In this document: piece by piece, positions 3,277 through 64,000 of the stretch
Position numbering within the stretch: position 1 is the stretch's first letter
Layout of the letters: every line of letters begins with the position of its first letter
Assembly: GCA_050699595.1 (NCBI GenBank)
Contig: JBOHFI010000028.1
Location: forward strand, 2,427 to 66,426
Length of the DNA: 64,000 bases
Source: Pseudonocardiaceae bacterium
Lineage (GTDB): Bacteria > Actinomycetota > Actinomycetes > Mycobacteriales > Pseudonocardiaceae
Direction: 5' to 3'
Notes under the pieces: model-generated
Database searches by the model: none
Told to the model about the DNA's origin: nothing
The model's input: only the letters and a program-made list of their open reading frames with translations
Made by a program: the position numbers and the translations under genes

Positions 3277-3289
3277 CCAGGATAGGACG

Positions 3290-39301: not shown

Positions 39302-39393
39302 TCCGAGAGTTACCTGCACCATGTCCGAGCACGTCGGTATTGACGAACCCTGGCGCCAACGCGGGCGCGGTGGATCGCTCGAAGGGTCCGAGT

Positions 39394-41837: not shown

Positions 41838-42647
41838 TCATAAGAGCCACTGGCGCGCGGCGATGAACCCGGCCTGAAACCGGCTCTTGGCTCCGAGATG
41901 ATCGAGAATTTCACCCATGCGGCGGCTGATCGTGCGATCCGATATGTGTAGATTTCGTGCCGCAACCGTACTGGTCGATCCGGCCGCCAACTCGGCGACG
42001 ATATCCTTGAGATGCTGCGGCATCGGATCCACCGGCGACATTTCGATATGAGCCTGTATTGCAGACCAGAGAAAATCATGACACGCTGTCAGCAGATTCA
42101 CGGCATCCTGGTCCCGAACGACTAGCAGTCGCGGCCGACGATCTCTTTCCTGAAGCTCCGACAGCAACGCGATATCCCGGTTGAGGGCCATGAGCGGCAG
42201 CTGGATCGGAAGGTATCGAACAGCATCATTAACGCCGTTTGGTTGCGGGGATCGTTGGGTGGGGGTCCGCCCTGCCGGATCGGTCGACTCGAGGATACGG
42301 GACGATCTTGCCGCATCGTCCTTGCCCATGAGGCCTACACAAAACAGCAGCAAATTGATGCTGTGCGGCGATCCTCGACCGATGGTTAATCGTTGGACGA
42401 TCGGATCTGGGCATGCGGAATCGCTGTAGACAGATTGGCGGTACTCGCTGGAAAAACGCTCGATCTCACTCTTGTCGGAAAGGTGAGAGACTGCGGGCAG
42501 CTGTTGAACTCGGCGGGTCACTTCCTGAAGGATTGACGCGGCCAACAGCTCCAGATAGCCTACGCCGACCGCGACGGTATTGGGGGTGCCGGCTGATGTG
42601 GTAGATGTCCGTGCCGGAGAGATCCTTGGTGGTGAAGGCCTCGACAT
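41838..42647 (-). CDS. LuxR-family (GerE-type HTH) regulator; N-terminal domain unknown
   Basis: C-terminal LKDIVAELAAGSTSTVAARNLHISDRTISRRMGEILDHLGAKSRFQAGFIAARQWLL. The start is uncertain (ATG 42647 chosen; the ORF is open to 42917). GC is lower than surroundings. Confidence 0.6.
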   Translation of the reverse strand: MSRPSPPRISPARTSTTSAGTPNTVAVGVGYLELLAASILQEVTRRVQQLPAVSHLSDKSEIERFSSEYRQSVYSDSACPDPIVQRLTIGRGSPHSINLLLFCVGLMGKDDAARSSRILESTDPAGRTPTQRSPQPNGVNDAVRYLPIQLPLMALNRDIALLSELQERDRRPRLLVVRDQDAVNLLTACHDFLWSAIQAHIEMSPVDPMPQHLKDIVAELAAGSTSTVAARNLHISDRTISRRMGEILDHLGAKSRFQAGFIAARQWLL

Positions 42648-43798
42648 GTTCGCGGGAACCGGACGCGGTGAAAACGACCCCCCGACGGCCTGCACGTTCC
42701 CTCCTCCGCGTCTCAGAGCCGCACACCCGAGCCGGCGACGGGCAGGTGTTGGATGTGGCGATCGAACCAGCCGGGCATCTGGAGCGGAGACCGAAGGTCG
42801 CGGGCCTGAGCCGGGCATCGTGGGCAGCGGAACCGTCCATCCATCCCTGCTCCGTGACCGAGAGCCAACACCATGATCGGCCCTCTCGTCGCGGTCCAGT
42901 CGCATCCCCGTGGCCACCCCTCCGACCCGGCGTTCAGATCAGCAATCATCATGCGTGGTATCATAAGCTCATATGAACACGGTTTGTCAACGTGTTGTGT
43001 CCGCTCACCTCCGGCTACCGTCAGCTTGGATCGGGGGCTGTAGGCCCTTGCAGGTGATGCCGCTCGCAGGGACGTACAGCTATGGTCCGTGTCGAGAGAT
43101 TCGCGGCGACCCGGCGCGCTTCCTGCCGCGTTCAATGTTGGGCAAAAGCAGCAGAGAGTCGATTTGATTGGCGCCGTGAGTACCCCAGCCCAAGCGGTAT
43201 CCCGGCCTCCTCGACGGGCATCGATTCTGGTCCGTGCGTACCGGGATCCACCGGAGAGAGGGGGCCGTCAGACTATTGCGTCTGGACGCAGCAAGCCCGA
43301 TCGGCATGTGGAGGAGGTTGGTGATCTATGTCCACGAGATGATCGATGAAGAGATTCTGGCTCGTCGTGAGCTCGATAAAGCTATGCCAGCGCATCGCTG
43401 CTCGGCGTAGCCGGTTCACCTTGCTGGGTGGAGCGCCAGCGCGTCTGGGTGCGGTCGCAGAACTCAGCGTAGGTCAGGTCTGTGGGGGATCCTCCGGCGC
43501 CGGCCGGCCGGCTGCTCGCAGTATGTCCAGCTCCGCAGCCGGCGCTTCTAGCTCGCCACCGGCACGCGGATGACACGCCTGCCGACACGCATCCCCAGGC
43601 GGGTTTCGACTCCCGGCAACAGTTATGATAAGATCAAGAGGAGTGTTGGTTGCCTGCAAGCGCGAAGACGCGAGGTCCAGTTGGGTCGCGAAGGTATGGA
43701 CCGCGTAGCCTGACTGGGACGGCGCTTCGGTAAAATCACCCTATTGTGCAGGACACGTTGAATCGGACCTGAGCAGTCCGGTCGGTTGGAGGTGGCCG

Positions 43799-45835
43799 TT
43801 GACCACGACCAATGACGGAGCGGAGCGTAAGCGAGACCAACTGGATGCCGAACGGTGTCGGTTGCGGTATGCGCGGGAATGCCTGACGCGCAACCGTGAG
43901 GAAATGCTTCGCATGGCCGAGTCGATGGTAGCACGTGGCGACGACGAGGAGATGATCGCCTGGCTGTATCGTAGGGCTTTCCAACTGGAAGACCGTGACG
44001 ATGCGCCGCTGTTCTTCGGTCGGATTGACGGCCCTTTGCCCGACCCCGTCTACATCGGACGTCGCTACGTCGCGGACGGCGACAACGAGCCAGCGGTGAT
44101 CGACTGGCGCACCGAGATGGCAACACGATTCTATCGGGCCACGGCCGCTCAGCCCATGAAAGTCACGCGCCGCCGTCGGTACGGCTTCTCCGACGAGCAG
44201 GAGATGACCAGCTTCGACGACGAGCAGCTTGCGGACATGGCCGCAGACGCAGGCCTGAGTGTTTTTGTACGTCAGGAGATCGAACTGGCCCACTACGGGC
44301 CGATGCGAGACATCGTGGCAACAATCCAACCCGACCAGGACCACATTGTCCGGCTCGGCGCGGGTGACTCCCTGGTTGTGCAGGGTGGACCCGGCACAGG
44401 CAAGACCGCTGTCGGGCTACACCGTGCGGCGTTCCTGTTGTTCGAGTACCGCCAGGTGCGACAACAGGGTGTACTCGTGGTAGGGCCCAACGACACATTC
44501 GTGCACCACATCTCCCGTGTGCTCCCTACTTTGGGGGAAATCGAGTGCAAACACGTGTCGCTAGCCGGGCTGGTCGGGGCAGACCGTGCCCCGACAGAGG
44601 ACCCGGACGTGGCCAAGTTGAAAGGCGACGCGCGATTGGCGACCGTGCTCGGGCGCGCGCTTTGGTCGACGGTGGGTCGAGCGCATGATGACTTTGTCGT
44701 CACCAACACCAGCCCCTATATCCGGGTCTACCCGGAAGAACTCGTCCGCCTTTCCAGGGACCTCATCGCAGACCGCAAGGATTTCGGTTCTGCCCGGGAG
44801 CTCATGCGGGAGCGGGTTGCCAATCGGGTGCGCCGCAAGCTGGAACTGCGAGGCCGCTCCCTCAGCGATACCGCGACCCGCAAGCTCGCGCGCGCGCAAC
44901 AGACCCGTGTGCTGGTGGAGTCGATCTGGCCGGTGCTCAAGCCGCGCGATGTGCTGTTCCGGTTGTACTCCGATGCGAGGCACCTCGCCCGGTGCGCCAA
45001 GGGAGTGCTCGACGAACAGGAACAGCAGGCGCTGCAGTGGGCCGAGCCACCCGCAACCGCCGCCAAAGCGCAGTGGACTGCGGCCGATCATGTTCTCCTC
45101 GACGAACTGGCCTCACTCCTAGACGCCCAGCCCCGATTCGGTCACGTCGTACTCGACGAGGCTCAGGACCTCTCCGCCATGCAGTTGCGCGCGGTGGGTC
45201 GCCGCTGCCGGGGCACAGCTACTATTCTTGGCGACCTCGCGCAGCAGACGACACCGTGGGGGCTACCTTCCTGGCACGCTGTCCTCGGCGTGTTGGGAAG
45301 GCCTGGCGAGGTCGTTACTCTCCACACCAGCTACCGTGTACCACAGCAGATTCTTGATATTGCCAACCGGCTGCTCGGCGAGATCGCCCCGGACCTGCCC
45401 CCCACCACCTCTGCCCGCTCGGCAGCGGATGCAGTCGTGCTGATCGCCGCGCCGTTATCCAGCGGAAGTGGCCCGATCGCAGTTGCACGCATCATCGCCG
45501 GGATAGTTCGAACGCTGCCAGTGGAGAGGGGCAGCGTTGGAGTTATCGTTGCCGACCCCGACGCCGAGCAGCTGCGCAGAGCCCTGGGCGCCGAGGGTAT
45601 CGAGCCTGTAAACGCTGACGAGGTGGATCGCGATAGGCGGCTGGCTCTAGTTCCTGTCGGCACGGTCAAGGGAATGGAATTCGACAATGTGCTGGTGGTC
45701 GACCCTCACCGTGTGATCGAGATGGGGGAAACCGGCATGCGACTGCTTTACGTCGCTCTGACCCGAGCAATATCGCAGCTCACAATTATACATACCGCCG
45801 CGTTGCCCGAGGTACTCGGTCTCGCTTCTGTGTGA
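43799..45835 (+). CDS. UvrD-like superfamily-1 helicase of the HelD type
   Basis: TTG 43799 after ggagg. N-terminal coiled-coil (AERKRDQLDAERCRLRYARECL...), motif I QGGPGTGKTAVGLHR, motif II VVLDEAQDLS and C-terminal KGMEFDNVLVVDPH...LLYVALTRA. Confidence 0.8.
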   Translation: MTTTNDGAERKRDQLDAERCRLRYARECLTRNREEMLRMAESMVARGDDEEMIAWLYRRAFQLEDRDDAPLFFGRIDGPLPDPVYIGRRYVADGDNEPAVIDWRTEMATRFYRATAAQPMKVTRRRRYGFSDEQEMTSFDDEQLADMAADAGLSVFVRQEIELAHYGPMRDIVATIQPDQDHIVRLGAGDSLVVQGGPGTGKTAVGLHRAAFLLFEYRQVRQQGVLVVGPNDTFVHHISRVLPTLGEIECKHVSLAGLVGADRAPTEDPDVAKLKGDARLATVLGRALWSTVGRAHDDFVVTNTSPYIRVYPEELVRLSRDLIADRKDFGSARELMRERVANRVRRKLELRGRSLSDTATRKLARAQQTRVLVESIWPVLKPRDVLFRLYSDARHLARCAKGVLDEQEQQALQWAEPPATAAKAQWTAADHVLLDELASLLDAQPRFGHVVLDEAQDLSAMQLRAVGRRCRGTATILGDLAQQTTPWGLPSWHAVLGVLGRPGEVVTLHTSYRVPQQILDIANRLLGEIAPDLPPTTSARSAADAVVLIAAPLSSGSGPIAVARIIAGIVRTLPVERGSVGVIVADPDAEQLRRALGAEGIEPVNADEVDRDRRLALVPVGTVKGMEFDNVLVVDPHRVIEMGETGMRLLYVALTRAISQLTIIHTAALPEVLGLASV

Positions 45836-48550: not shown

Positions 48551-49939
48551 ATGACCCGACTGAGCCAGTCCGTTGACCGCGTGACCGCCCTGCTCACGGG
48601 CGCGGACCTCGCGGTCGAAGCCGCCGTGCGCGATCTGCTGACCGAGACCATGCAGCGCCGCGGCCTGGACCTGTCGGACCTGCGCCCGGCCGAGCAGGCC
48701 GCCCTGATCGCCCCCCGGTCCCAGGAGCTTGCGCCATCCGTCGATGCGCTGGCCGAGCGGATCATCACGGCCGAGCAGAAGGGCCGCCGGTTCATCGCCA
48801 AGTTCGGTATCGACCCCACCGGGCATGAGGTGCACCTGGGGCACACGGTGCCGATGCTCATCCTCAGCCGTTTCCAGAGGATGGGCCACGAGGTGGTGTT
48901 CATCGTGGGGGACCTGACCGCGAAGATCGGCGACCCGTCCGGCCGCTCCGATGATCGCCCGGCGCTGACTGATGAGGATATCGCCCGCAACCTCGTCACC
49001 TACCGTGAGCAGGTCACCCCGTTCTTCGACTTCGAGCGTGCCCAGTTCCGGCACAACGGTGACTGGTTGCGGCAGATCACGTTGCCGGAGATCATCGAGA
49101 TCACCGCGAAGATCCCGGTGTCCATGCCGCTGCAACGCGAGGACTTCCGCAAGCGCCTCGATGCTGGGCAGGGCCTGTCGCTGGCCGAGTTGATGTACTC
49201 GGTCGTGATGGCGTTGGACTCGGTGGAGACCCACTGCGACCTGGAGGTCGGCGGGATCGACCAGTTCCTCAACATGCAGATGTGCCGCAAGGTGATGGAC
49301 ATCTGCGGGCAGACGCCGGAGTTGGTGGTCGCCACCTCGCTCATCGAGGGCACGGACGGCACCGGGGCCAAGATGAGCAAGTCGAGGGGCAACTACGTGC
49401 CGCTCACCGCTTCGGCGGGCGAGATGTTCGGCAAGATCATGTCCGTGCCCGATCGCCTGGTGGAGCAGTACTTCCGGGCGCTGTCGGAGTGGTGGGATTC
49501 CGAACTCGCCGTCACCGCTGAGCGAGTGCGGGCCGGGTCGCTGCACCCGATGGACGTGAAGAAGATCCTGGCCGGGGAGGTCACCGCCGCCATCCACGGT
49601 GTGGACGCGGCGATGCAGGCCCGCGAGGAGTTCGTGGCCCGCTTCTCCCAGCGCACCTTCGCCGCGGCCGGAGACCTGCCCACCATCAGTGATCTCGGTC
49701 AGTCGGTCATCGACGCGGTCAAAGCCCTGGGCTTCGCCACGAGCAACGGCGACGTCCGTCGCGTCGCCGAACAGAACGGCCTGCGTCTGGTGGTCGAGTC
49801 CGAGGGCGGTCAGAAGCAGGTGACGCTCACCGCTGAGGAGGCCCGCGAGCCGTTGGTCGTCGTGGTCAAGGACAAGCTCGAGGGCCAGTCCGGCGACTTC
49901 TACCTCAAGGTCGGCCGCAAACTCGCCCGCATCACCTGA
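48551..49939 (+). CDS. tyrS: tyrosine--tRNA ligase, type 2 (TyrZ-like) with ~70-aa N-terminal extension
   Basis: HIGH region GIDPTGHEVHLGHTVP, IVGDLTAKIGDPSGRS, GGIDQFLN, KMSKS, and a C-terminal S4-like domain. Confidence 0.8.
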   Translation: MTRLSQSVDRVTALLTGADLAVEAAVRDLLTETMQRRGLDLSDLRPAEQAALIAPRSQELAPSVDALAERIITAEQKGRRFIAKFGIDPTGHEVHLGHTVPMLILSRFQRMGHEVVFIVGDLTAKIGDPSGRSDDRPALTDEDIARNLVTYREQVTPFFDFERAQFRHNGDWLRQITLPEIIEITAKIPVSMPLQREDFRKRLDAGQGLSLAELMYSVVMALDSVETHCDLEVGGIDQFLNMQMCRKVMDICGQTPELVVATSLIEGTDGTGAKMSKSRGNYVPLTASAGEMFGKIMSVPDRLVEQYFRALSEWWDSELAVTAERVRAGSLHPMDVKKILAGEVTAAIHGVDAAMQAREEFVARFSQRTFAAAGDLPTISDLGQSVIDAVKALGFATSNGDVRRVAEQNGLRLVVESEGGQKQVTLTAEEAREPLVVVVKDKLEGQSGDFYLKVGRKLARIT

Positions 49940-50016
49940 CGATGCTGGCCGCACACGGATGAACACCAGCCAGGCTGATGCCTGTTATTCGTGACTCGCC
50001 TCGACGCCGTCACTGG

Positions 50017-51462
50017 TCATGTGGTGATGTCCTCGTCGTCCTGGGCGCTGTGCAGAAAGCTGGTGATCTCCTCGTCCAATTCCATCAGGCTCACCGAGTG
50101 CAGTGTCCGCATCTGCCGCTGTAGCGACTGAATCCGAAGGACTGTTCCTCTGGAGCTGACCCGACCTGCCGTGTTCAGCGCATCGCGGGTCAACGCTGCG
50201 GCGTGTTCGTGGTCGCCTGCGACCAGGTAGGCGGTGGCGAGATCGGTCTGCACGAGACAGCGGCTTCGCACGCGCCACGGCTCGTAGCTGTCCAACGTGC
50301 GGGTCATCAGCAGAGCGGCGTGTGCCGGCTCGCCGCTGTCCCGGAGTGCTCGGCCCAGGTCAGCGGCTAGTTCGGCTTCGGTGTAGAAGCTCAGCCACGC
50401 TGGCTCCCCATCAGAGCGACACCGTTCGTAGTGCCGCTCGGCTTCTAGTACCGCGGTTCGAGTGGCGCTGGCGTCCCGGCCCAGCGCGTGTGCCCGCGCT
50501 TCCACAGCACTGAGTACGGCCGCCAAGGCCGGGGTCGCCTTCCCGGCCACCGCCTTCCCCGCTCGTGCCAGCGCTACCGCCTGGTGGGTGCAGTGCTGGC
50601 CGGTCGCGTTCTTGATCGTCAAACGGCTCATGGCGCACAGCATGTAACCCGCGAACAGCCGGTTGCCCGCGTTCATCGCCAGGTTGAGGGCCTGGACGTA
50701 GTAGCGCTGCGCCAGGGCGTGACGGCCCACGTCGACGGCCGTGAACCCCGCCAGCCGAGTGGCCTGTGCCACTGCTGTCAGCAGCGCCCTGCCGGTCGAA
50801 TCCGAGTAGCAACCGTGTAACAGCGTGGTCGCCTCGTCGTGCAGTAGCCGCACGACTCGTACTCGAATTCGGCCCGATCCGTAACGGAAGTCCATCCGCC
50901 GCAGCTGCGCAACGCTGTCGGTCAGGATCTCCACATCGGTCATGCCGATACGCCTACTGCCCGCATCCCTGGCCGCGTCGGCCACCGGCGGCGCGGCCAG
51001 GGCGAGCAGCGCCGGTTCGGCGAAGGCCGCTGCGGTGAACGTAATCCCCGGCAGGAGAACCCGTCGCTTCACGTCCGCTCCCGACAATTCGACGATCGTG
51101 TGCAGCGTGCTGTCCAGTCTCCCCGCATACCGCAGGGCGTCATCCGCCGGATGACCGTCGATCACCACCGGCAGCACCAGACCACCCTGCGACGACACAG
51201 GATCACTGGACTCGCCGGACCCCACCACGGCCACCAGGTCACCACCGCGCACCGATGGCGGCAATCGCACTAGCTCGATCAACCTGTCTCGTGAGACGGA
51301 CAGCACGCGGGCGATCTTCGGCCAGAGGTACGGCAACGGCTCGTGGTCTCCCGCCTCCCAGCGCACCACAGTGGACCGATCCACCCCCACCTCCTCCGCG
51401 AACGACTCCTGCGTGTACCCCACCGCTTTGCGAGCATGGACCAGACCCTCCCGTTTCCCCAT
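50017..51462 (-). CDS. XRE-family HTH regulator with TPR-like C-terminal domain
   Basis: ATG 51462. MGKREGLVHARKAVGYTQESFAEEVGVDRSTVVRWEAG, then about 400 aa of helical repeats. Confidence 0.75.
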   Translation of the reverse strand: MGKREGLVHARKAVGYTQESFAEEVGVDRSTVVRWEAGDHEPLPYLWPKIARVLSVSRDRLIELVRLPPSVRGGDLVAVVGSGESSDPVSSQGGLVLPVVIDGHPADDALRYAGRLDSTLHTIVELSGADVKRRVLLPGITFTAAAFAEPALLALAAPPVADAARDAGSRRIGMTDVEILTDSVAQLRRMDFRYGSGRIRVRVVRLLHDEATTLLHGCYSDSTGRALLTAVAQATRLAGFTAVDVGRHALAQRYYVQALNLAMNAGNRLFAGYMLCAMSRLTIKNATGQHCTHQAVALARAGKAVAGKATPALAAVLSAVEARAHALGRDASATRTAVLEAERHYERCRSDGEPAWLSFYTEAELAADLGRALRDSGEPAHAALLMTRTLDSYEPWRVRSRCLVQTDLATAYLVAGDHEHAAALTRDALNTAGRVSSRGTVLRIQSLQRQMRTLHSVSLMELDEEITSFLHSAQDDEDITT

Positions 51463-51609
51463 TGCGGCATGCTCCCACACCGGGGTGAGCCAACTCACCG
51501 CAACCAAGGAGAGGGGTTCGCCAGCCGCAACTGGCGCATTCTGACAGCTCGACAGTGCCGTCCCGGAAGAGATTTCAGCGTGGGCCGCGAGGATGCGTCG
51601 TAGAGCCGA

Positions 51610-52656
51610 TCAGAGGAAGAACGAGTGCTCCGGCTGGGGCAATACCGCACGCAGATCGTCGGCCCACCGCTCTACGTCGGCTAGGCGCCCTGCCTCCCGG
51701 AGCCGCTCCACCTCGCGGAAGACTCGGTTGAGGTGGTGGCCGCGGCCGTTGCCGGGGGGATCGCCGTACAGGTCCGAGCACGGCAGAAGGTCACCACTGG
51801 GCGTCACCTCGCCGAACCAGCCGGCGGCCAGGCAGCCACGGTCGTCAGGAGGAAGCGGTTCCACTTCGGCCAACGACGCGTCTGGGGCAACCACGTCGAC
51901 GCCAGCCTCGGCCAGCAGCCTGCGAGCTTGGGAGGTGGGGCAAGTGTGAGCGAGGAACGCGGCCCGTACGTCATCGTCGGTGTCGATCTGTGCGCCGTTC
52001 AGTGGGAACGCCGGGCGCAGTATCAGGTAGTCGACCGCTCCCGCGCCATGCCGCTTGCAAAGCCCGGACACGAACTCCGCGACCGCCTCGATGTCATCGA
52101 CATTGTTGCGATCGACCACGACTGACACGCCAAGGAGCGTTCGGGACCGGCGTTGTACGCGCAGCTCAGCCAATATCTCAAGGTTGTGCGACACACGACG
52201 TTGGTACGGCATCCGCAGGTCGTAGTCGTGGTGACGACGGTGTACGTCAGGTGTCACCGCGTTGAGACTGACCCGGACGAACACGAGCTCGGCGTCGAAC
52301 AGCGTCGCGGTCTGCTCGGCGTTGAATAGGCTGCCGTTGGTGAACACACACTGATTCACTCCACGCTTGTGCGCGCGGGTGACGGCGGAGTAGAGCAGCG
52401 GATTCATGGTGGGCTCCCCGCCCACCCACATGATCTCCACGCGGTGTTCAGCGAGGTGATCGATCACGGCGTCGATTCGGGATCGCCGCATCACTGTCAG
52501 CGGCGACGACCGGGGGTGGTGGAAGACGTCTGTGTCCGACCATTCCTCCCGTGCGCTGCGGCAGCTACACCAGGGACACGCGAAGTTGCACAGGAAGGTC
52601 GGGCTCACCTCGACGTGCAGCGGCAGCACCTCGTGATAGCGCCCGGCGAGCACCAA
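51610..52656 (-). CDS. radical SAM enzyme, subfamily not recognised
   Basis: CNFACPWC (CxxxCxxC), IMWVGGEPTMNP, VFTNGSLF. The start is set to TTG 52656 or GTG 52653 because the longer ORF (to 53022) runs through serS. Confidence 0.75.
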   Translation of the reverse strand: MVLAGRYHEVLPLHVEVSPTFLCNFACPWCSCRSAREEWSDTDVFHHPRSSPLTVMRRSRIDAVIDHLAEHRVEIMWVGGEPTMNPLLYSAVTRAHKRGVNQCVFTNGSLFNAEQTATLFDAELVFVRVSLNAVTPDVHRRHHDYDLRMPYQRRVSHNLEILAELRVQRRSRTLLGVSVVVDRNNVDDIEAVAEFVSGLCKRHGAGAVDYLILRPAFPLNGAQIDTDDDVRAAFLAHTCPTSQARRLLAEAGVDVVAPDASLAEVEPLPPDDRGCLAAGWFGEVTPSGDLLPCSDLYGDPPGNGRGHHLNRVFREVERLREAGRLADVERWADDLRAVLPQPEHSFFL

Positions 52657-52720
52657 GCGGACGCGGTCGCCCCAGTGACCGGGCTGCTCAGGGAGGGGCC
52701 ACGTGGACCGCTCCTGGATC

Positions 52721-54022
52721 TCAGCCGCCGTCGTGGCGCTGTCCCTGCGCGCGCAGCGGCCCGAGGGTCTCGGCACCGCCCATGTACGGCCGCAGCACTT
52801 CTGGCAGGAGTACTCGGCCGTCGGGTTGTTGGCCGTGCTCGACGATGGCCGCCCATAGCCGCGGTGTGGCCACTGCGGAACCGTTGAGCAGGCACACGTG
52901 TCGGGTGCCGCCTTCCGTGCGCACCCGAATCCCGCTGCGCCGGGCTTGGAAGTCAGTGAAGCTGCCGACCGAGGACACCTCCAGCCAACGGTCGACGCCG
53001 GGGGCGTACACCTCCAGGTCAAAAATCCGCGCCGAGGAGAACGTCAGGTCGCCGGTGCATAGGTCCACCACGCGGTATGGCAGCTCCAGCTCTGTCAGTG
53101 TGCGCTCGGCGTCGGCGAGCAACTCGGCGAACTCGTGCTCGACGTTTTCTGGCAGGCATATCCGCACCAGCTCGACCTTGTGAAACTCATGCAGTCTCTG
53201 CATACCGCGGGTGTCCTTGCCGGCGCTACCGGCCTCGCGACGGAAACAGGAGGTGTAGGTCATATACCGGCGTGGCAGGTCGGCGGGGTCGAGGATCTCC
53301 TCACGGTGCAGCGCGGTCAGCGGCACCTCGCCGGTGGGCACCAGCCACAGGTTGTCGAGCGTAGTGGTGTATGCGTCATCGGCGAACTTGGGCAGGTGGC
53401 CGGTTCCGACCATGATCTGCTCGCGCACCATGTGGGGAACGATGAGTTCCTCATATACACCGCGATGCGTGTCCAGTCCCCACGACACCAGCGCTCGCAG
53501 CAGCCGGGCACCGTCGCCGCGCAGCACCGAGAAGCCCGAACCGCTGAGCTTGGCGGCGCGCTCGACGTCGAGAATGCCTAGGTCGCCAGCCACCTCCCAA
53601 TGCGGCCGAAGCTCCGGCGCGGGCACCGCCTCGGGGCCTCCGTAGCGCAGCACCACGTTGGCCGACTCGTCGTCACCCACCGGGGCCTCAGGATCGGGCA
53701 AGTTCGGTAGCGTCAGCAGCAGGTCGAGCGACGACTGCTCGGCGTCCTTGAATGTGCTCTCCAGCTCGGCGATCACGAGCTTGAGCTGCACCAGTTCGGC
53801 GCGGCGTGCCTCAACAGAGGCGTCCTTGTTGGCGATAAGCCGGCTCATCTCCTTGGACTGCCGGTTCATGGTCGCTCGCGCCTCGTCGAGCTGGGCGCGG
53901 AGCTGACGTCGGTGCAGCACAGAGTCGCGCGCACGGTGAACCTTCGCCGGATCGATACCCTTGGTGGCCAGCCGCTTGGCCACCTCGTCGGAGTGATCGA
54001 GGATCAGATCAAGATCGAGCAC
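52721..54022 (-). CDS. serS: serine--tRNA ligase
   Basis: 433 aa with an N-terminal coiled-coil arm and class II motifs (TSCFRREAGSAGKDTRGMQRLHEFHKVE; LLNGSAVATPRLWAAIVEHGQQPDG). Confidence 0.9.
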   Translation of the reverse strand: MLDLDLILDHSDEVAKRLATKGIDPAKVHRARDSVLHRRQLRAQLDEARATMNRQSKEMSRLIANKDASVEARRAELVQLKLVIAELESTFKDAEQSSLDLLLTLPNLPDPEAPVGDDESANVVLRYGGPEAVPAPELRPHWEVAGDLGILDVERAAKLSGSGFSVLRGDGARLLRALVSWGLDTHRGVYEELIVPHMVREQIMVGTGHLPKFADDAYTTTLDNLWLVPTGEVPLTALHREEILDPADLPRRYMTYTSCFRREAGSAGKDTRGMQRLHEFHKVELVRICLPENVEHEFAELLADAERTLTELELPYRVVDLCTGDLTFSSARIFDLEVYAPGVDRWLEVSSVGSFTDFQARRSGIRVRTEGGTRHVCLLNGSAVATPRLWAAIVEHGQQPDGRVLLPEVLRPYMGGAETLGPLRAQGQRHDGG

Positions 54023-54108
54023 AGTCTTGTCTCCAGCTCGGGGGGGCTACCGTTGGGGCGGGCGTTTTGTTCAGGTGAACCGATACATCTGCCAACGCTA
54101 CCTCGCGC

Positions 54109-54273
54109 GAAGAATGAGTGGCCCAGTGGGTAGGTGGCCTCCCGTAGATCGTCCACCCAGCGCCACACCTCGGACATACGGCCCGCACGCCGGAACTGTT
54201 CAATCTGGTGGAACACCCGATTGTGATGGTGCCCCCGCGAGTTATGCGGGCAAGTGGTCTGAAAACATTCACG
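54109..54273 (-). pseudogene. C-terminal remnant (~55 codons) of a radical SAM paralogue
   Basis: SRGHHHNRVFHQIEQFRRAGRMSEVWRWVDDLREATYPLGHSFF aligns with the C-terminus of 51610..52656 (GRGHHLNRVFREVERLREAGRLADVERWADDLRAVLPQPEHSFF), about 24/44 identical by hand count. Confidence 0.5.
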
Positions 54274-57448: not shown

Positions 57449-58070
57449 CCCATTGATGATCGGGCGGTTGTACTATTGATACCCCATCAAGGCGGTGTTC
57501 TGTTACAGAACGCATTCGATCAGGGGATTTGGTTACTCTCAGTAGTCAAACCTCGGCCTGCGTCGAAGGTGGTGAGGAGCGGTGTCGCTGGCCGCGCACG
57601 CCGTCGCTCCTGACAGCTCGTCCCGAGCAGGGTAGGCGGGAATCGATCATCTACGATGCACCTCATGGCGACGGTCAGTGTGCATCCGATTCAACGTGAG
57701 TTCAGTCTTGCGGGCGGTAAGCAGAGTTGTCGGCTCTGTGGCGCTGAGGAGCGTTGGACCGCCAGCGCGGAGCCTCTGATCCAGGGACCGGCGCTGCAGC
57801 GCACGCTGCACCTGGTGCATCTCGTCAGGGCACACTTGGCGGACGTTCAAGCGACCTTCTCAGCAACAGAACGCAAGAAGGAGATCACGGTCCACGACGA
57901 GTAGACCCCGGGGTCTCGCCGCTGTGGCACTGGTTGGTGGTCAGCGTGATGCGGCCCGCGAACATGGTGTGGTCACGCTGGGATAATGTCAGGAATGTCA
58001 TGGACCGGTCAGGTGGCTACGTCCAACCCTGACAGGGCAAACGAGTCGCATCCATTGACTGAGAAGAGTC

Positions 58071-59151
58071 ATGAACGCCACGCTGACAACCATGCTTGTC
58101 AGAAATGGTAACCACGCGGAACCACGCTTGCCGCAGTTCCGCGTCACCGTGAATGCCCGGTGTGGACGAGCGTGCTTCTTCTGCCGTCCGTCCGGCGAAG
58201 CGGTAGCCACGGCGGCCGGCATGGAGCTGAAGGTTGACGACCTCATCGCCGTTGCCAAGGTGGTGCGGGGTGCGGGCATCACCAGCATCAAACTCACGGG
58301 TGGCGACCCTGCTCTGTACGGTCCACTTGAGGAAGCGGTGTTTCGGCTTCGCCGCGAGGCTGAGTTCGATCAAGTTGAGGTGGATCTCCCGGCACCCTTC
58401 GATCGGCGAGCGCGCCGAACGCCTTGCGGCCTCTGGGGTTACCCAGTTCACCATGAGTATCGACACGTTGGACAAGCGGTTGCACCACGAACTGTGCGGC
58501 GTGGATGATCTGCCCGAGGTGATTGGCGCACTTCAACGGTGCGTCGAGACCGGAATTCCCGTCAAAGTGAACATGGTTGTGATGGGCGGCATCAACGATG
58601 ATGAAGTGGCGTCGCTGGCTGGTTTCTGCGCTATGAGCGGCGTGCGCACTCTCAAGTTGCTCGATGTCATCAAGGACCTGGATGAAGGCTCTGAGAGCTT
58701 CGCGCGGCGACTCGCGATCAAGCGGGGCACGAAGCTGTCCGAGCTGTACGTGCCGCTCGGGACGTTCGCCGAGAAGTTCTTGGCCGTGGCCGTCCAGCGT
58801 GAGGTGCGCACCCAAGGCGGTCTCGGCCACCCCATGAACGTGGCGACTCTGCCGTCCGGCCTCGAGATAATGTTCAAGGACAGCGGCGTCGGAGCTTGGT
58901 ACGGCTCGATCTGCAATGGCTGTCCGTTCTTCCCCTGTCACGACGCACTGATGGCCCTACGCCTGACGGCCGATCTCCGCCTGCAGTTCTGCTTGCTGCG
59001 CCGGGACAACACGGCGGATCTGTCGAGCGTTGTCCACGACACCAACCAGCTCAGCGCGCTGGTTGGTGCGGCGCTCGAACCGTACACCAGCGCCAAATTC
59101 CGCACACCGGCTACCGATGCGCTCACGCTCACCGCGGCGGTGCCGGCATGA
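58071..59151 (+). pseudogene. MoaA-family radical SAM enzyme split by a 1-nt frameshift near 58383
   Basis: ORF 58071..58508 gives CGRACFFC (CxxxCxxC) and IKLTGGDPAL. ORF 58234..59151 (+1 frame) continues with TMSIDTLD... and the MoaA-type second cluster/GTP region ICNGCPFFPC...RLTADLRLQFCLL. Confidence 0.7.
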
Positions 59152-60530
59152 GCCGTTTTCTCGGACCGTCAACGCGTCGGCCTCTTGTGATCTTGCTGTA
59201 TCCAAAGGTAGACCACGAGAAGGATTACGTCTACTTCTGGATGCCATTCTCACTGCTGACGCTCGCCAAGCCGCTGCTCGATGAAGACCTGGCCGATGTA
59301 GCGCTCTTCGATGGCAACCAGACGAGCGAGGACGACTGGTCACGCTTCCTCGATGAGCATCTGGATCGGGCGTTATGCATCGGCGTGAGCATCATGACGG
59401 GCGGCGGCCAGATTGGACATGCGCTCGACCTGGTACAAACTGCGAGGGAGCGCACGAACTGCCCACCAGTGGTGTTCGGCGGCCCGCACGTCAACGTGCT
59501 CGCCGATCATACCGCTGAACACGAGCTCGTTGACGCGGTACTGGTCGGACCAGGCCAGAACTCGATGCCCGCGTTCGTCACCGCGCTCATGAACAACACG
59601 ACGTGGGAAGATGTACCGGGTCTCGTCGCCCGGCGAGGACGCGAGCTGGTACGCGGACCGCTCAACCCGCCGCGTACGGGTCTGATGGGCCACTATCCCT
59701 GGCACTTACTCGATATCGAGCGCTACGTGCGCGATGACCCGACTGTGGCATCGCGGACGCTGAACTACATCAGTTCGCAGGGCTGTGTCTACAAGTGCCA
59801 GTTCTGTTACGAACTGACCTACCAACGGAAGTACAGCGCTATGGCCGCTGACCGCCTGGTCGCCGACATCGACGACTTACAACGGCGCTTCGACGTGAAC
59901 GGGATCAAATTCTACGACGCTGACTGGTTCGTGAATCTCAAGCGAGCAGCGGCCTTCTGCCGAGGCGTCATCGACGGTGGGCTCGACTTGGCGTGGGCAG
60001 CGTCGATCAACCCGAACGATATCTTGAAGGCTCGGCGCGCAGGTATACCGCTCTTGAGGCTCGTGGCTGAGAGCGGCGGTTCACGGCTGCTGATGGGAGT
60101 CGAGTCCGGTAACGACCGAGTGCTACGCGACGTGGTACGCAAGGAAGTCACCCGAGCGCAAATCCTCGACGTGGCAAGCGATATCGCCGATCATGGTCTG
60201 TTGGGATCGTACACGTTTATCGTCGGCTTTCCCGGTGAGAGCGACGCCGAGCAGGACGATACCTACAGGCTGATCGAAGAGCTTCGGACACTGAAGCCGA
60301 CGCCCGAGACCCGCGTCCATCTGTTCGCGCCGTACCCCGGCACGCCGCTCTACGAGGACGCCATACGAGCGGGTTTCATCCCTCCGTCCACCTTGGATGG
60401 TTGGTCACGATTCGACTACTACGACTCACAAACCCCGTGGACGTCGGCCGAGACGGTACGCCGCGCTCGTGCCGCGACCCAGATGCGACTACGTCCCCAA
60501 GAATTACGGCCCCACGAGGTAGTTACATGA
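59148..60530 (+). CDS. B12-binding-domain (class B) radical SAM enzyme
   Basis: ATGA overlap with the upstream stop. N-terminal Rossmann-like cobalamin domain (LCIGVSIMTGGGQ...VVFGGPHV) and core CVYKCQFC, MGVESGNDRVL. Confidence 0.85.
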   Translation: MSRFLGPSTRRPLVILLYPKVDHEKDYVYFWMPFSLLTLAKPLLDEDLADVALFDGNQTSEDDWSRFLDEHLDRALCIGVSIMTGGGQIGHALDLVQTARERTNCPPVVFGGPHVNVLADHTAEHELVDAVLVGPGQNSMPAFVTALMNNTTWEDVPGLVARRGRELVRGPLNPPRTGLMGHYPWHLLDIERYVRDDPTVASRTLNYISSQGCVYKCQFCYELTYQRKYSAMAADRLVADIDDLQRRFDVNGIKFYDADWFVNLKRAAAFCRGVIDGGLDLAWAASINPNDILKARRAGIPLLRLVAESGGSRLLMGVESGNDRVLRDVVRKEVTRAQILDVASDIADHGLLGSYTFIVGFPGESDAEQDDTYRLIEELRTLKPTPETRVHLFAPYPGTPLYEDAIRAGFIPPSTLDGWSRFDYYDSQTPWTSAETVRRARAATQMRLRPQELRPHEVVT

Positions 60531-61495
60531 CCACCTTCGCCCCGATGGCGCTGGCTCGGGTGCGCAACGACCTGTGCCAGAAGTGGCGTGAGTATCTGCT
60601 TGACGGCTTCGCCGTTGAAGTCACAACGCCGACCCTGCACACCTGTCCTGACATCGCTCCTGTCCGTCAGTTCACGACGGTGCACCCGAGCACGGGTGAG
60701 GTCGCGTACCTGCGGATCGCTCCGACTGAGTACCTGAAGCGACTAGTGGCGGCTGGGCAAGACCGTGTCTTCGAGTTCTCGACCAACTTCCGCGACGACC
60801 CCGTCGACGGCACCCACCTGCCGGAGTTCACCTCGCTGGAGGTGATGGCTCGCGACACTACCTGCGCCGACATGGAGCGCAACGCGGCGGACCTATGCGA
60901 ATTAGCAGTCGAGATCGCGCGGCGGTATCGCCCGCTGACCGAACTGCCGGTGTGGGTTGAACAGTGGGAGCAGTGCCGGATACGGCGCATCGAACTGTCC
61001 GACGAGCTGAGCGAGTACGTCGCCGGTACACCCGACTGGCTGGAGTGGCCCACAGTGATCGGGGCGCTGCTCGCTGACTTCGGGGAGCCGGTCGAACCGA
61101 GTGTCACACTGCCGGTCTTGACGGACCAGCTTGTCACCGTGCTCGCTCAGCGAACGAGTGGCGCCGTGCTGATCGGCGGTTTTCCGGATTTCTTGGGCGG
61201 GCCGGCCGCGCCGCATCCGACCCGGCTCGGCTTCAAACAGCGCAGCGAGTTGTTCATCGACGGGCTCGAAGTCGCCAATATGTCGACCAATTTGACTAAT
61301 GGTCGAGCATTACGTCAGTGGCATCAGGATGGCGTCCAGGCGAAAACCGTGCTGGGTATTAAAACCAACCATCTTGACGAGGAGCTGCTCAGTCATCTTG
61401 ATGGCAACCTGCCGCCGTCCGCAGTGCTCGGCTTTGGCGTTGAACGCATGTTGCAGGCCACCCTCGGCCTTCCCGATATTCGCGCTCTCCGGTAG
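60527..61495 (+). CDS. class IIb aminoacyl-tRNA-synthetase catalytic-core paralogue without anticodon-binding domain (EpmA/GenX-like)
   Basis: ATGA overlap with the upstream stop. 322 aa with motif 2-like FRDDPVDGTHLPEFTSLE and motif 3-like LGFGVERMLQ, collinear with LysRS-type cores. Confidence 0.8.
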   Translation: MTTFAPMALARVRNDLCQKWREYLLDGFAVEVTTPTLHTCPDIAPVRQFTTVHPSTGEVAYLRIAPTEYLKRLVAAGQDRVFEFSTNFRDDPVDGTHLPEFTSLEVMARDTTCADMERNAADLCELAVEIARRYRPLTELPVWVEQWEQCRIRRIELSDELSEYVAGTPDWLEWPTVIGALLADFGEPVEPSVTLPVLTDQLVTVLAQRTSGAVLIGGFPDFLGGPAAPHPTRLGFKQRSELFIDGLEVANMSTNLTNGRALRQWHQDGVQAKTVLGIKTNHLDEELLSHLDGNLPPSAVLGFGVERMLQATLGLPDIRALR

Positions 61496-61504
61496 AATCG
61501 ACTC

Positions 61505-62455
61505 ATGAGAGAGCCTGCCATGCGTATGGTCCGCCCGAAATCACTGCGAGCTGGTGGCGTTATCGGCGTGGTGTCGGTATCCGCGCCTGAGCCCGCGACC
61601 GAAGGCGAGTTCTTCGATCGCGGCGTGGCTGCCCTCGAACAGTGTGGCTATGATGTGGTGCTCGGCAAGCACACCACCGGTCAACAGGGCTACGTCACGG
61701 CAAGCGGCGAAGCGCTCGCGGCCGACCTGCACGAGCTGTTCAGCAACCAGCGGGTGTCAGCCATCGTCTGCGCGGGCGGGGGTGTCAACGCCAACCGCCT
61801 GCTGCGCCACCTGAGCTTTGACATCATCGGCGCGCAGCCCAAGATACTGGTCGGTGTCAGCAACCCGACTGTACTGCTCAACGCCATTACTGAACAGACC
61901 GGTCTCATCACCTTCCATGGGCCGAGCGTGGTGTGGGACTTCGGCGTGGAAAACGGCGCACCCGCACCCGCGCTCACGCGTACGCACTTCTGGGAGCTAC
62001 TCGGAAGTCGCGAGCCTGCCTACGCCGTACCCGTACAGAAGGACTGGCGCTGGCTGCGGAAGGGTGATCTGTCCGGCCGGGTGATCGCTGGAAACCTCGC
62101 CTCACTGCAAGGCCTGCTCGGTACCCCATATGAGCCGAACTGGGACGATGCGGTGCTGTTCTGGGAAGACATCGCTAAACCGGTGAACCGACTTGACATG
62201 ACGCTGACACATTTCCGCGATGCGGGCGTGTTCGACCGCATCAACGGCATGGTGGTCGGCAAACTGGTGGCCTGCGAGCCAAGCGACGGCGTCACCTACG
62301 ACGCGATGCTGCTCGACTTGCTTCGTGGCAACGAGTTCCCGATCTTGACCGAAGTGCCGTTCGGGCACACGGCGGGCAAGCTGACGTTGCCGATCGGCGC
62401 GCAGCTGCACGCCTCACCGGACAGCGATGTGCTGCAATTCGAGTTTCCGGCTTAG
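61505..62455 (+). CDS. S66-family LD-carboxypeptidase / MccF-like serine peptidase
   Basis: GVIGVVSVSAP..., ILVGVSNPTVLLNAI (nucleophile elbow), PFGHTAGKLTLPIG. Confidence 0.8.
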   Translation: MREPAMRMVRPKSLRAGGVIGVVSVSAPEPATEGEFFDRGVAALEQCGYDVVLGKHTTGQQGYVTASGEALAADLHELFSNQRVSAIVCAGGGVNANRLLRHLSFDIIGAQPKILVGVSNPTVLLNAITEQTGLITFHGPSVVWDFGVENGAPAPALTRTHFWELLGSREPAYAVPVQKDWRWLRKGDLSGRVIAGNLASLQGLLGTPYEPNWDDAVLFWEDIAKPVNRLDMTLTHFRDAGVFDRINGMVVGKLVACEPSDGVTYDAMLLDLLRGNEFPILTEVPFGHTAGKLTLPIGAQLHASPDSDVLQFEFPA

Positions 62456-62476
62456 CTCAGGGAGGAATCGCCAGCT

Positions 62477-62872
62477 GTGATGCGCGCGATCATCGTCAAA
62501 GAGAGCTTGGAAGATGGCGAGCTACCATCGAGCTTGCGCGGCTCTCGGGTGCGTGAGTACCGGCACCCGCTTGATGAGGACACCGTGATCACCATCATCG
62601 AACTGGTCGTTGCCGAGCGGCACGCCCTCGATGCCGGTATGGCGTTGTCACGGAAGCTGGTATCCCGGCTGTACTATGCGCATATTCTCAACGACCAGTC
62701 GATGTACATCGTCTTCCCGAACTGTCTCGTGTATCTCGATCGGGACGACGCTGACGGTGAGCGGCAGGCGCACGCCATCGGACAGACCTTCGACATTCCG
62801 CTGTCACAGATGCGCTTCCAGGAGATGTTCGAAATTGATCACCCCGACGACCCGGCGATGGCCGGCCCGTGA
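62477..62872 (+). CDS. hypothetical protein
   Basis: 131 aa, lower GC, no recognised domain. Its stop overlaps the next start. Confidence 0.5.
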   Translation: MMRAIIVKESLEDGELPSSLRGSRVREYRHPLDEDTVITIIELVVAERHALDAGMALSRKLVSRLYYAHILNDQSMYIVFPNCLVYLDRDDADGERQAHAIGQTFDIPLSQMRFQEMFEIDHPDDPAMAGP

Positions 62873-63603
62873 CGAGCCACGCGGCTGGCTCTTCGCCACT
62901 CGCTGTCGTTGCCGGTGCGAGTGGCGCCATCGGCTCGGCTACGGTCCAGGCGCTGACGTCGGCGGGCTGGTCGGTGATCGGCACCTACCGGCATGCCCGG
63001 CCGGAACCGTGCGCGGGCGTGTTCTGGGTCCCTTTCGACGGCATACACGCAGGCGGTACAGCCGAGCTTCACACAGCGGTCGCGGCCAGCCCCGGGCCGC
63101 TGCAAGCCGTGGTCTGCTGCCTGGGCACGCCATCGAGCAAGCGGCCGATCGCAGACACCGACCCCGACGAGTTCGACGCGGTGTTCGCCGGCAATGTCAC
63201 CAGCGTTGTTCGGCTGTGGCAGGCGGTACACGAACGCGCCCGTAAGGCAGCGGCTGGTGTGGTAATACTGGGCTCGGACACTACGGCGACGCTGCGCGCG
63301 GACAACGGGGCTTACAGCGCGGCCAAGGCTGGTCTCGAAGCGCTGAGCACGACACTGGCGGCCGAGGAAGCCGAGCACGGCGTACGGGTCAACCTGGTGG
63401 CTCCTTCATTGGTGGCGTCGCCGCTGGCCGAAAATGTGCTCGCGCTCAAGGATGTGTCCGACGTCGATGCCTACTACCGGGCGCTGCCCTGGGGCCGAGC
63501 TCTGTCCCCGTCCGAGGTGGCCTCTGTTGCCGTGGAGATCGCGACCGCGTCACACTGGCGCTATGCCAGTGGTCAGGTGGTGCGTCTGGCGGTGCACGGT
63601 TGA
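62869..63603 (+). CDS. short-chain dehydrogenase/reductase (SDR)
   Basis: LAVVAGASGAIGSA and YSAAKAGLE (YxxxK). Confidence 0.8.
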   Translation: MTSHAAGSSPLAVVAGASGAIGSATVQALTSAGWSVIGTYRHARPEPCAGVFWVPFDGIHAGGTAELHTAVAASPGPLQAVVCCLGTPSSKRPIADTDPDEFDAVFAGNVTSVVRLWQAVHERARKAAAGVVILGSDTTATLRADNGAYSAAKAGLEALSTTLAAEEAEHGVRVNLVAPSLVASPLAENVLALKDVSDVDAYYRALPWGRALSPSEVASVAVEIATASHWRYASGQVVRLAVHG

Positions 63604-63605: not shown

Positions 63606-64000
63606 ATGGTGACTAAGCGGCACTCTCGCCAGGTCGGCATCGTGCACGTGCTGCGGGCGCGTGAGTGGGTGTCGGCGAACTCCCTTGCGCGGCGCTTCGA
63701 GGTCGTGGCCCGCACTATCTACCGGGACGTTGAGGAGCTGATCGCGGCGGGCGTGCCGATCGAGTCGGTCTCCGGTCCGGAAGGGGGCTACCGGCTGGCG
63801 TCTGATCAACCACTCACACCGCTCACTCTGAGCGCGGACGAGGCGCTGAAGCTCTACGTGGTGAGCCTGCTCGACCGACGAAAATCGAACGAGCCGGACA
63901 GCGACGTGCCCGAGCTGGGCAACACCTACTCACGCGAAGCCCTCAAGCGGCTCAGTCAGCGCATTTACTTCGACACGGCCGACTGGTACTGGAAGGACGA
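63606..64000 (+). CDS. YafY-type (HTH_11 + WYL) transcriptional regulator, N-terminal part; 3' end outside the window
   Basis: ATG 63606. MVTKRHSRQVGIVHVLRAREWVSANSLARRFEVVARTIYRDVEELIAAGVPIESVSGPEGGYRL. Absent from the ORF track because no stop is reached. Confidence 0.7.
   Translation, partial: MVTKRHSRQVGIVHVLRAREWVSANSLARRFEVVARTIYRDVEELIAAGVPIESVSGPEGGYRLASDQPLTPLTLSADEALKLYVVSLLDRRKSNEPDSDVPELGNTYSREALKRLSQRIYFDTADWYWKD

Follow-up and report, generated by a model that had tools for sequence, protein, structure and literature searches.

A mobile, strongly conserved and apparently undescribed gene cassette joining two radical-SAM enzymes to a LysRS-like ligase, an S66 peptidase and a short-chain dehydrogenase

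We analyzed a 64,000-nucleotide (nt) stretch of DNA from a Pseudonocardiaceae bacterium (positions 2,427 to 66,426 of contig JBOHFI010000028.1, assembly GCA_050699595.1; hereafter, the window) and found, close to its end, an operon that belongs to a real, strongly conserved and apparently undescribed gene cassette. The conserved unit is R-B-A-S-U-D, six genes coding for two radical-S-adenosylmethionine (radical-SAM) enzymes, a catalytic core related to lysyl-tRNA synthetase (LysRS), a serine peptidase, a small protein with no homolog of known function and a dehydrogenase, and it usually includes a regulator, W, and a putative DNA glycosylase, H. No published description of this gene set was found in the curated libraries or the literature searched, as the original prediction, made from the sequence of the window, had suspected. 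Here, we describe the gene content, conservation, modular evolution, mobile context and intact catalytic motifs of the cassette. The reading that we favor, at a probability of roughly 0.4, is that of an inducible mobile pathway that makes a tailored aminoacyl-nucleotide, with self-protection, for use in microbial conflict. Overall, the evidence points towards a DNA- or nucleotide-centered conflict over a classic Trojan-horse antibiotic.

The six genes fill positions 58071-63603 as co-oriented, translationally coupled open reading frames (ORFs), located where the original prediction had placed them, and are flanked by a conserved upstream region and by the start of W:

57986-58070, plus strand: upstream control region, a probable operator/5' leader; conserved DNA with TGTCAG-type half-sites
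58071-59151, plus strand: R, MoaA-like radical-SAM enzyme; Pfam Radical_SAM on both halves, ORFs 58071-58508 and 58234-59151
59148-60530, plus strand: B, class B radical-SAM enzyme; Pfam B12-binding and Radical_SAM (PF02310 and PF04055)
60527-61495, plus strand: A, LysRS-like class II aminoacyl-tRNA synthetase (aaRS) catalytic core of 322 amino acids (aa), without an anticodon-binding domain; Pfam tRNA-synt_2
61505-62455, plus strand: S, S66 serine peptidase; Pfam Peptidase_S66 and S66C
62477-62872, plus strand: U, 131-aa protein without a family match, a putative new domain family
62869-63603, plus strand: D, classical short-chain dehydrogenase/reductase (SDR); Pfam adh_short and adh_short_C2
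63606-64000, plus strand: 5' part of W (131 codons, truncated by the end of the window), transcription regulator; HTH_11, WYL and WCX

The first two junctions are ATGA overlaps (59148 and 60527), the next two are gaps (9 nt and 21 nt) and the last is a GTGA overlap (62869). These junctions, together with the co-orientation of the six genes, had been predicted and are confirmed in the sequence; Pfam likewise supports all six predicted domain assignments (radical-SAM, B12-type radical-SAM, aaRS core, S66, unknown protein and SDR), and the predicted YafY-type regulator does follow, as an HTH_11-WYL-WCX protein that starts at 63606. The lower GC content noted for the upstream 600 nt holds as well, with 60.0% in the 622-nt upstream gap, 62.1% across the genes R through U and 66.8% in the rest of the window. 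Contig CDHZWM010000133.1 (GCA_975304515.1), identical to the window over the shared 13,474 nt, continues past the window end with the 348-aa regulator W and then the 329-aa HhH-GPD protein H. The unit of six genes originally proposed was thus right about the core; it missed W and H, neither of which a Trojan-horse model predicts. Within the window, the R gene is interrupted by a frameshift, caused by a single extra G at 58382 (GG in the window, G in locus L006). In L006, which is 91% identical to the window at the DNA level, the R gene is intact, with 358 codons. The window R gene may be inactivated or mis-sequenced, and a pseudogene and an assembly error both stand.

The same cassette occurs in 20 further loci (21 with the window), with a nearly constant gene order and unrelated flanks. 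We collected the loci by examining genome contexts, scanning 185,579 species representatives and searching plasmids; their carriers belong to at least six phyla: Actinomycetota, Pseudomonadota, Bacteroidota, Ignavibacteriota, Bacillota and Cyanobacteriota. The co-occurrence of these genes in other genomes, on which the original prediction depended, is therefore established. Actinobacterial carriers are metagenome-assembled genomes (MAGs) of Pseudonocardiaceae and other Actinomycetota, and Prauserella endophytica CGMCC 4.7182. Plasmid-borne copies were found in Nocardia asteroides, N. farcinica, N. cyriacigeorgica, four Streptomyces strains and one Calothrix, and the remaining carriers include Brevundimonas, a Bacteroidetes MAG, a Melioribacteraceae genome and gut Bacilli MAGs. 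The cultured carriers are P. endophytica CGMCC 4.7182, N. asteroides FDAARGOS_1621, N. farcinica, Streptomyces sp. NBC_00239 and Calothrix sp. NIES-4101. Short of true LysRS, the homologs of ligase A number ~74 clusters, a small family. A scan of metagenome contigs with the ligase has no bearing on the spread of the cassette, as the matches listed were genuine LysRS genes only, at 26-30% identity.

To count gene content we used the 18 loci whose contig shows the whole core. R, B, S, U and D were found in all 18, and D was seen in every locus where the contig allows. Fifteen loci have an A of the window type, two have a longer LysRS-like fusion and one has a replacement; H is present in 14 of the 18 and W in 13. 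W and H change position between copies, from R-B-A-S-U-D-W-H in the window to R-B-A-S-H-U-D-W in Melioribacteraceae, R-B-A-S-W-H-U in Brevundimonas and R-B-H-(U-A)-S-W-D in locus L018; in L018 and L019, H is embedded between B and A, with stop/start codon overlap. Four loci (Bacilli, Calothrix and L014) keep the six core genes without a nucleic-acid-binding partner.

The surroundings of the cassette are typical of plasmids, integrative and conjugative elements (ICEs) and defense islands. Genes of the window's left flank accompany no other copy, including that of the 91%-identical L006. Across the loci, the neighbors include mobile-element genes (ArdC, TrwB/TraG, integrases, serine recombinases and IS110), defense-type genes (AbiEii, RES, PIN, PemK, PhdYeFM, Eco57I/MmeI-type enzymes and a NACHT NTPase), dCTP and deoxycytidine deaminases and a "conflict-system" glycosyltransferase of family GT4. 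No MccB/ThiF-type enzyme, efp or lysine-2,3-aminomutase-type gene was present in the 23 annotated gene tables and the flanks scanned (selected flank ORFs only in L006, L008-L010 and L012), no MoaC or other molybdenum-cofactor gene in the loci examined, and no dedicated tRNA within the 18 cassette loci.

Comparison of the copies revealed that the parts of the cassette evolve in blocks. On the N. asteroides plasmid (L016), identities to the window are 71% for R, 80% for B, 66% for D, 61% for W and 70% for H, and 36% for A, 46% for S and 43% for U. On a Streptomyces plasmid (L103), R and B are 62% and 69% identical to their window counterparts, A is 25% identical, and the order of S and A is swapped. 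In N. farcinica (L104), a 798-aa protein with an FGE-sulfatase domain stands in place of A and a GT4 gene is added; we considered this protein as an aaRS-like ligase and rejected it, since it has no detectable aaRS likeness. L018 and L019 have a longer A, of 581-595 aa, in which U and an OB-like region are joined to a LysRS-like core; inspection of the sequence by eye suggests that this core retains the residues of the lysine pocket. Across the identity matrix, R, B, D, W and H remain similar, and A, S and U diverge or are exchanged together. This pattern suggests to us two modules: an unchanging one for chemistry, R-B (with D), and an exchangeable one for specificity, A-S-U, in which A is the most variable and replaceable component.

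For R, MoaA equivalogs are by far the best NCBIfam families, although the 115-122 bits of the intact ortholog fall short of the cut-offs (231-325), and among solved structures MoaA is the closest (1tv7, 3.6e-14). The viperin NCBIfam model was not among the matches. Among 17 homologs, C281, C284, C289, C307, a His-Asp pair and a QGGLGHP motif are invariant, and the three cysteines of the CX3CX2C motif are nearly so, missing only from one sequence annotated with a late start. In a HMMER alignment with S. aureus MoaA, R17, K163 and R192 are identical and K69, R71 and N124 are altered; in a manual comparison with the MoaA C-terminal motif, R268 is apparently kept and R266 changed. The position of the MoaA TTNG motif is changed as well. 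Several of the aligned MoaA residues are triphosphate-binding positions, and a nucleoside triphosphate is a plausible substrate of R. B is the most conserved protein of the cassette, with 45-95% identity to the window copy across phyla. It reaches no NCBIfam subfamily cut-off (best, ApyD, 108.8 vs 750) and is a generic class B, that is, cobalamin-dependent, radical-SAM enzyme.

Ligase A is a paralog of the LysRS catalytic domain and not EpmA. Its AlphaFold2 model (pLDDT 92.4) has LysRS catalytic domains as best folds, at TM-scores of 0.76-0.86, with EpmA absent from the top 50 matches, and sequence comparison likewise favors LysRS (3a74, 4e-26) over EpmA (3g1z, 2e-13). The protein lacks the OB domain and fails the LysRS equivalog (120.7 bits vs 427.6); it also fails both EpmA cut-offs (TIGR00462, 99.8 vs 286.9; NF006828, 80 vs 264), and neither epmB nor efp was present in the gene tables and flanks scanned. 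The "EpmA-like" core of the original prediction was thus correct as a LysRS core without an anticodon domain, and a bona fide EpmA it is not. Adenylate formation is expected of A, in which the arginines of motifs 2 and 3 and the glutamates that bind Mg (R89, E241, E248 and R307) do not vary. The specificity pocket, whose analysis had been suggested, is altered: at the positions of Y280, F426 and E428 of LysU, which hold the lysine side chain, the alignment places Met, Ser and Asn, and PELY becomes PTEY. Because these lysine-pocket positions are changed, the substrate is probably an amino acid other than plain lysine. A 2022 review of aaRS paralogs lists LysU, PoxA and LysX as the only LysRS-derived ones, and the A clade is not among them.

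S appears to be a cassette-specific S66 clade that is nearest to MccF-like proteins. Its best matches in the PDB are MccF (3sr3, 2e-41; 3tla, 4e-37), with LdcA trailing at 5e-20 and 1.5e-17; the LdcA equivalog is failed (NF008424, 129.7 vs 378), and by these scores S stands apart from the housekeeping murein carboxypeptidases. The Ser-Glu-His triad, in the motifs GxS, WE and GHT, is invariant in 14 cassette copies. U, in turn, would represent a new domain family. When 67 members were compared with Pfam at E<=5, no family was shared by more than one of them and the best E was 0.0034; the window copy had no match in NCBIfam or PADLOC; and the AlphaFold2 model (pLDDT 85.8) had no significant match in the PDB (best E 0.045, LarC2/ACT-like, TM-score 0.38) or BFVD. 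An exhaustive profile search of 1.84 billion representative proteins yielded 114 clusters only. Tyr67, His69, Gly102, Phe114, Phe118 and His122-Pro123 are near-invariant, and in other genomes U is fused to D (Bacilli), to the LysRS-like ligase or to the C-terminus of S. We considered U as a covalent carrier and down-weighted this idea, since no Lys, Ser, Thr or Cys is conserved. A small protein preceding the ligase in locus L100 was likewise rejected as a second U domain, as it is a membrane protein.

The translation of D carries the GASGAIG and YSAAK motifs. H has a predicted AlkA/OGG-like DNA glycosylase architecture (Pfam HhH-GPD; nearest structure 4ejy) and lies below the cut-off of the ogg subfamily (43.7 vs 397.85). 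Its GxGPY hairpin and catalytic D274 are invariant in nine copies from two clades that are ~20% identical to each other, and the position of the OGG-type nucleophilic Lys is occupied by Tyr, so that a monofunctional enzyme is expected. W contains PF08279, PF13280 and PF25583, and its best solved relatives are PafBC (7p5x, 2.3e-10, and 6sj9) and DriD (8tp8). All cassette enzymes have acidic to neutral isoelectric points. Within the upstream gap of ~620 nt, only positions 57986-58070 are conserved, among five actinobacterial loci, where the conserved DNA amounts to the 85-150 nt before the first gene (~85 nt in the window). This segment is a probable operator/5' leader. Its half-sites, three in number and of TGTCAG type (TGTCAGGAATGTCA and the palindrome CCCTGACAGGG), are accompanied by a ribosome-binding site, GAGGAGAG. 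The repeat and the palindrome recur at the same position in L002, L004, L006 and L008, and they seem to resemble the core, TGTCAG, of the RecA-independent (PafBC) promoter motif of mycobacteria. A precursor peptide upstream was rejected, as no small ORF is shared in the conserved upstream DNA, and so was a riboswitch, as Rfam gave no match.

For the substrate class, the order of steps, the inducer and the biological role, we infer the following. R and B would act as a constant pair that remodels a purine nucleotide, with B probably catalyzing a methylation or rearrangement, and D would reduce or oxidize a carbonyl or hydroxyl group arising on the way. A would convert an amino acid to its adenylate and transfer it, independently of tRNA, to the remodeled nucleoside or nucleotide, much as class II synthetases acylate the terminal adenosine of tRNA. 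S may then take off the aminoacyl group, for unmasking, recycling, detoxification or immunity, and U may assist A, S and D. By analogy with PafBC and DriD, W would switch the operon on, probably upon the appearance of single-stranded DNA (ssDNA) from damage, phage or plasmid entry, and H would remove the analog or its lesion from the host DNA. The likely role would be that of an antiviral or antibacterial nucleotide analog, carried as cargo of plasmids and islands. Small-molecule chemistry is favored because four loci keep the core without a nucleic-acid-binding partner and because the enzymes are acidic to neutral; the mobile, defense-island context and the type of regulator suggest a role in conflict; and action inside the cell is favored because there is no conserved exporter. 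The relative of R bonds at guanine C8 and the relatives of H recognize C8-oxidized guanine, a suggestive but speculative common theme. A bolder form of the idea, which we regard as possible but doubtful, is a mobile inducible weapon or immune module in which the radical-SAM pair makes a novel purine nucleotide, A-S-U arms and disarms it by aminoacylation and H protects the genome, or else a wholly new pathway of DNA-base hypermodification.

Several observations weigh against the aminoacyl-nucleotide pathway. A nucleotide is no more than the presumed substrate, and R, at about half of the MoaA cut-off and with additional weak SkfB and SPASM-type matches, could act on an amino acid or a peptide. 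In a MAFFT alignment, S lacks a ~21-residue loop of B. anthracis MccF, and a nearby Trp is not conserved; HMMER placed the gap elsewhere, which makes this a lead only. The extended loop of MccF lies over the active site and holds the nucleotide through an adenine-stacking Trp. H and W are accessories, being absent from 4-6 loci, and a conserved exporter is not part of the cassette, with sporadic small membrane proteins in two loci only. No relatives of the cassette were present in INPHARED phages or IMG/VR that would point to a phage origin, and PADLOC gave no match for A, S, U, D or H, generic WYL models only for W and a weak pVip match (37.6 bits) for R. A scan for promoter and terminator consensus sequences found nothing, and the frameshifted window copy itself may be non-functional.

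The original prediction had gone on from a modified aminoacyl-nucleoside or nucleotide, with self-protection, to a Trojan-horse inhibitor of an aaRS, which would also rationalize the nearby serS and tyrS genes. In its full form, this model has a secreted compound, S as MccF-type immunity and the spare serS and tyrS copies as resistant targets. The product class and the idea of self-protection remain plausible; the aaRS inhibitor with MccF immunity found no direct support, and we consider it unlikely. It draws on the closeness of S to MccF, on the predicted ability of A to form aminoacyl-adenylates and on the Streptomyces plasmid copy, which is adjoined by two HIT-domain genes (nucleotide phosphoramidase family), an ABC ATPase and a ProRS-like gene. 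The "MccF-like" peptidase, however, is nearer to MccF than to LdcA and apparently lacks the MccF loop, and the cassette has no precursor peptide, MccB-like enzyme or conserved exporter. Both tyrS (48551-49939, plus strand) and serS (52721-54022, minus strand) are ordinary by NCBIfam score, passing the housekeeping equivalog cut-offs. Three unrelated genes lie between them and the cassette, and they adjoin no other cassette copy, including the 91%-identical one; they lend no support to an aaRS-inhibitor product. A secreted inhibitor also leaves the conserved DNA glycosylase and the DNA-damage-type regulator unexplained, and a spread over six phyla on mobile elements would be odd for an antibiotic cluster. 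Those two proteins are what a DNA or tRNA hypermodification or repair system would account for: an amino-acid-bearing base would be built on the polymer, and the HhH-GPD protein would flip, exchange or proofread it. GluQRS acting on queuosine and the amino-acid-decorated thymidines of phages are precedents. Of 18 loci, 14 carry H, whose catalytic Asp is invariant, and in some the gene lies within the operon; an OB-fold region and pocket residues like those of LysRS are retained in one variant ligase; three loci have type IIG/IIL restriction-modification genes within 10 kb; and W is of an ssDNA-sensing type. This explanation is weakened by the four loci that keep the six core genes without a nucleic-acid-binding component and by the acidic to neutral enzymes, as well as by the lack of phage copies, a dedicated tRNA and a conserved restriction partner, and none of the transglycosylases, kinases or pyrophosphorylases of known DNA-hypermodification routes is encoded; we judge it improbable, much like the secreted inhibitor.

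An amino-acid or cell-wall cassette is, in our view, a distinctly unlikely third account. An amino acid would be attached to a protein (perhaps U), modified there by the SDR and the radical-SAM pair and set free by the peptidase, or the stem peptides of peptidoglycan precursors would be remodeled in the manner of van-type resistance operons, whose logic is a dehydrogenase, a ligase, a carboxypeptidase and a regulator. A ligase that makes, and an LD-carboxypeptidase-family hydrolase that breaks, the same type of bond would suit such a scheme, as would the fusion of U to A, S or D, expected of a carrier or recognition domain, the weak similarity of R to peptide-modifying twitch/SPASM enzymes and the glycosyltransferases, one of them MurG-like, near some copies. 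None of the residues that could carry an acyl group (Lys, Ser, Thr or Cys) is conserved in U, A fails the EpmA cut-offs with no efp present, S fails the LdcA cut-off, and the DNA glycosylase and the WYL regulator are again left without a role. That the genes are merely housekeeping paralogs (MoaA, EpmA, LdcA and a FabG-like SDR) that became neighbors by chance, with no common function, we hold to be extremely improbable and already contradicted. Each protein does come from a large, common superfamily, yet the housekeeping equivalog cut-offs are all missed widely, stop and start codons overlap, synteny persists in 21 loci with unrelated flanks and domain fusions join the partners.

Individual cassette loci have further features. 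In L014, the ligase and S66 genes are parted by an inserted transposase gene of the IS110 family (5805-6350), and the cassette is followed by three serine-recombinase genes. In L004, a cluster of four tRNA genes (Trp-CCA, Ala-GGC, Ala-TGC and Ala-CGC) lies 1-2 kb downstream of the cassette (15535-16850), adjoining an IS110 transposase gene. Upstream of the cassette in L002, a divergent gene (5976-6932, minus strand) codes for a 318-aa class II core that resembles HisRS or HisZ; MauE-like and unknown genes come next, and the core is not conserved in other loci. Small multi-pass membrane proteins are encoded inside or directly before the cassette in L100 (3557-3937; 126 aa) and L015 (3183-3473; 96 aa, with a weak SemiSWEET/MtN3 match); they are mutually unrelated by BLAST and could be sporadic product transporters. 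On the plasmid of Streptomyces sp. NBC_00239 (L103), the flanks (1-8000 and 16100-18700) code for a TauD dioxygenase, deoxycytidine and dCTP deaminases, a PIG-L deacetylase, WbqC, two glycosyltransferases, a ProRS-like "aaRS-related" protein, two HIT-domain proteins and an ABC ATPase, which may form a second nucleotide-centered system or an extended version of the cassette.

Elsewhere in the window, the aaRS-rich stretch at 48551-54249 also contains a gene for an HTH_3/NsdA-family regulator (50017-51507, minus strand) and a radical-SAM gene (51610-52776, minus strand) with weak viperin and tungsten-cofactor-maturase matches, whose start overlaps the end of serS. Just upstream of serS (~54109-54249, minus strand), a 47-codon remnant is 55% identical to the C-terminus of that radical-SAM protein, as if serS lay within a duplication. 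Further to the left, a 774-aa YcaO protein (39340-41664, plus strand) passes the cut-off of the SagD-type cyclodehydratases of thiazole/oxazole-modified microcins (TOMM; 244.5 vs 219.25), a sign that a cluster for a thiazole/oxazole peptide may lie nearby. Positions 41838-42917 hold an ORF of the GerE/LuxR type. The gene at 43799-45835 (plus strand) codes for a HelD/HelR-like RNA-polymerase recycling ATPase, with HelR as the best NCBIfam model, below its cut-off. Some members of the HelD/HelR family confer rifamycin tolerance.

If the aminoacyl-nucleotide pathway proves true, A would constitute a fourth functional type of LysRS paralog, after LysU, EpmA and LysX, R and B would form a new co-operating radical-SAM pair acting on nucleotides, and a role would be found for U, a domain family with no homolog of known function that would offer a new fold or function. 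The product would be a new nucleotide analog or scaffold with an arm/disarm logic, which bears on antiviral defense, nucleoside drug discovery and the cargo of plasmids and ICEs. Even with a mundane product, an eight-gene pathway with exchangeable parts that is mobile across phyla is unusual, and its presence in cultured strains makes the question directly testable.

Among known systems, microcin C (mccABCDEF) shares with the cassette an S66 Ser-His-Glu hydrolase nearest to MccF, an enzyme of aminoacyl-adenylate chemistry and a plasmid-borne setting. The cassette differs in lacking the MccA peptide, the ThiF-like adenylyltransferase MccB and MccC/D/E, in using a class II aaRS core as aminoacyl donor, in having an S apparently without the BaMccF loop and in adding two radical-SAM enzymes, an SDR, a glycosylase and a WYL regulator. 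The EpmA (PoxA/GenX)-EpmB system of elongation factor P (EF-P) is alike in its LysRS paralog cut down to the catalytic core, its expected non-tRNA acceptor and its radical-SAM gene neighbors; A is closer to LysRS, however, with a changed pocket, the radical-SAM enzymes are MoaA-like and B12-type rather than a lysine 2,3-aminomutase, and no efp is nearby. MoaA, the GTP 3',8-cyclase, is the best family and structure for R and, besides the CX3CX2C motif, may have in common with it a C-terminal Fe-S site and several triphosphate-binding positions. R has four invariant C-terminal Cys, whereas MoaA has three; K69, N124, TTNG and apparently R266 are changed, and no MoaC accompanies it.

Other systems resemble single parts of the cassette. 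Prokaryotic viperins, which make 3'-deoxy-3',4'-didehydro-nucleoside triphosphates (ddhNTP), and the plasmid-borne oxetanocin pair OxsB/OxsA, in which OxsB is B12-dependent, remodel nucleotides by radical-SAM chemistry, are found on mobile DNA or in defense islands and have a possible antiviral role. The cassette likewise carries radical-SAM enzymes, one of them B12-type, on mobile DNA or defense islands; it has no HD-domain phosphohydrolase, and its ligase, peptidase, U and glycosylase have no counterpart there. GluQRS (YadB), which acylates a hypermodified purine-derived base, AsnA, the amino acid:carrier-protein ligases and LysX all use truncated aaRS catalytic domains as ATP-dependent amino-acid ligases, as A would, although each belongs to a different class or clade. 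Genotoxin clusters with a self-resistance glycosylase, such as those of azinomycin and yatakemycin, parallel the dedicated, co-transcribed, monofunctional-type HhH-GPD glycosylase of the cassette; their biosynthetic enzymes are unrelated to those of the cassette, some copies of which lack H and W. Finally, PafBC, DriD and BrxR/CapW, the WYL regulators of defense and DNA-damage regulons, are the known counterparts of the HTH-WYL-WCX regulator that the cassette carries.

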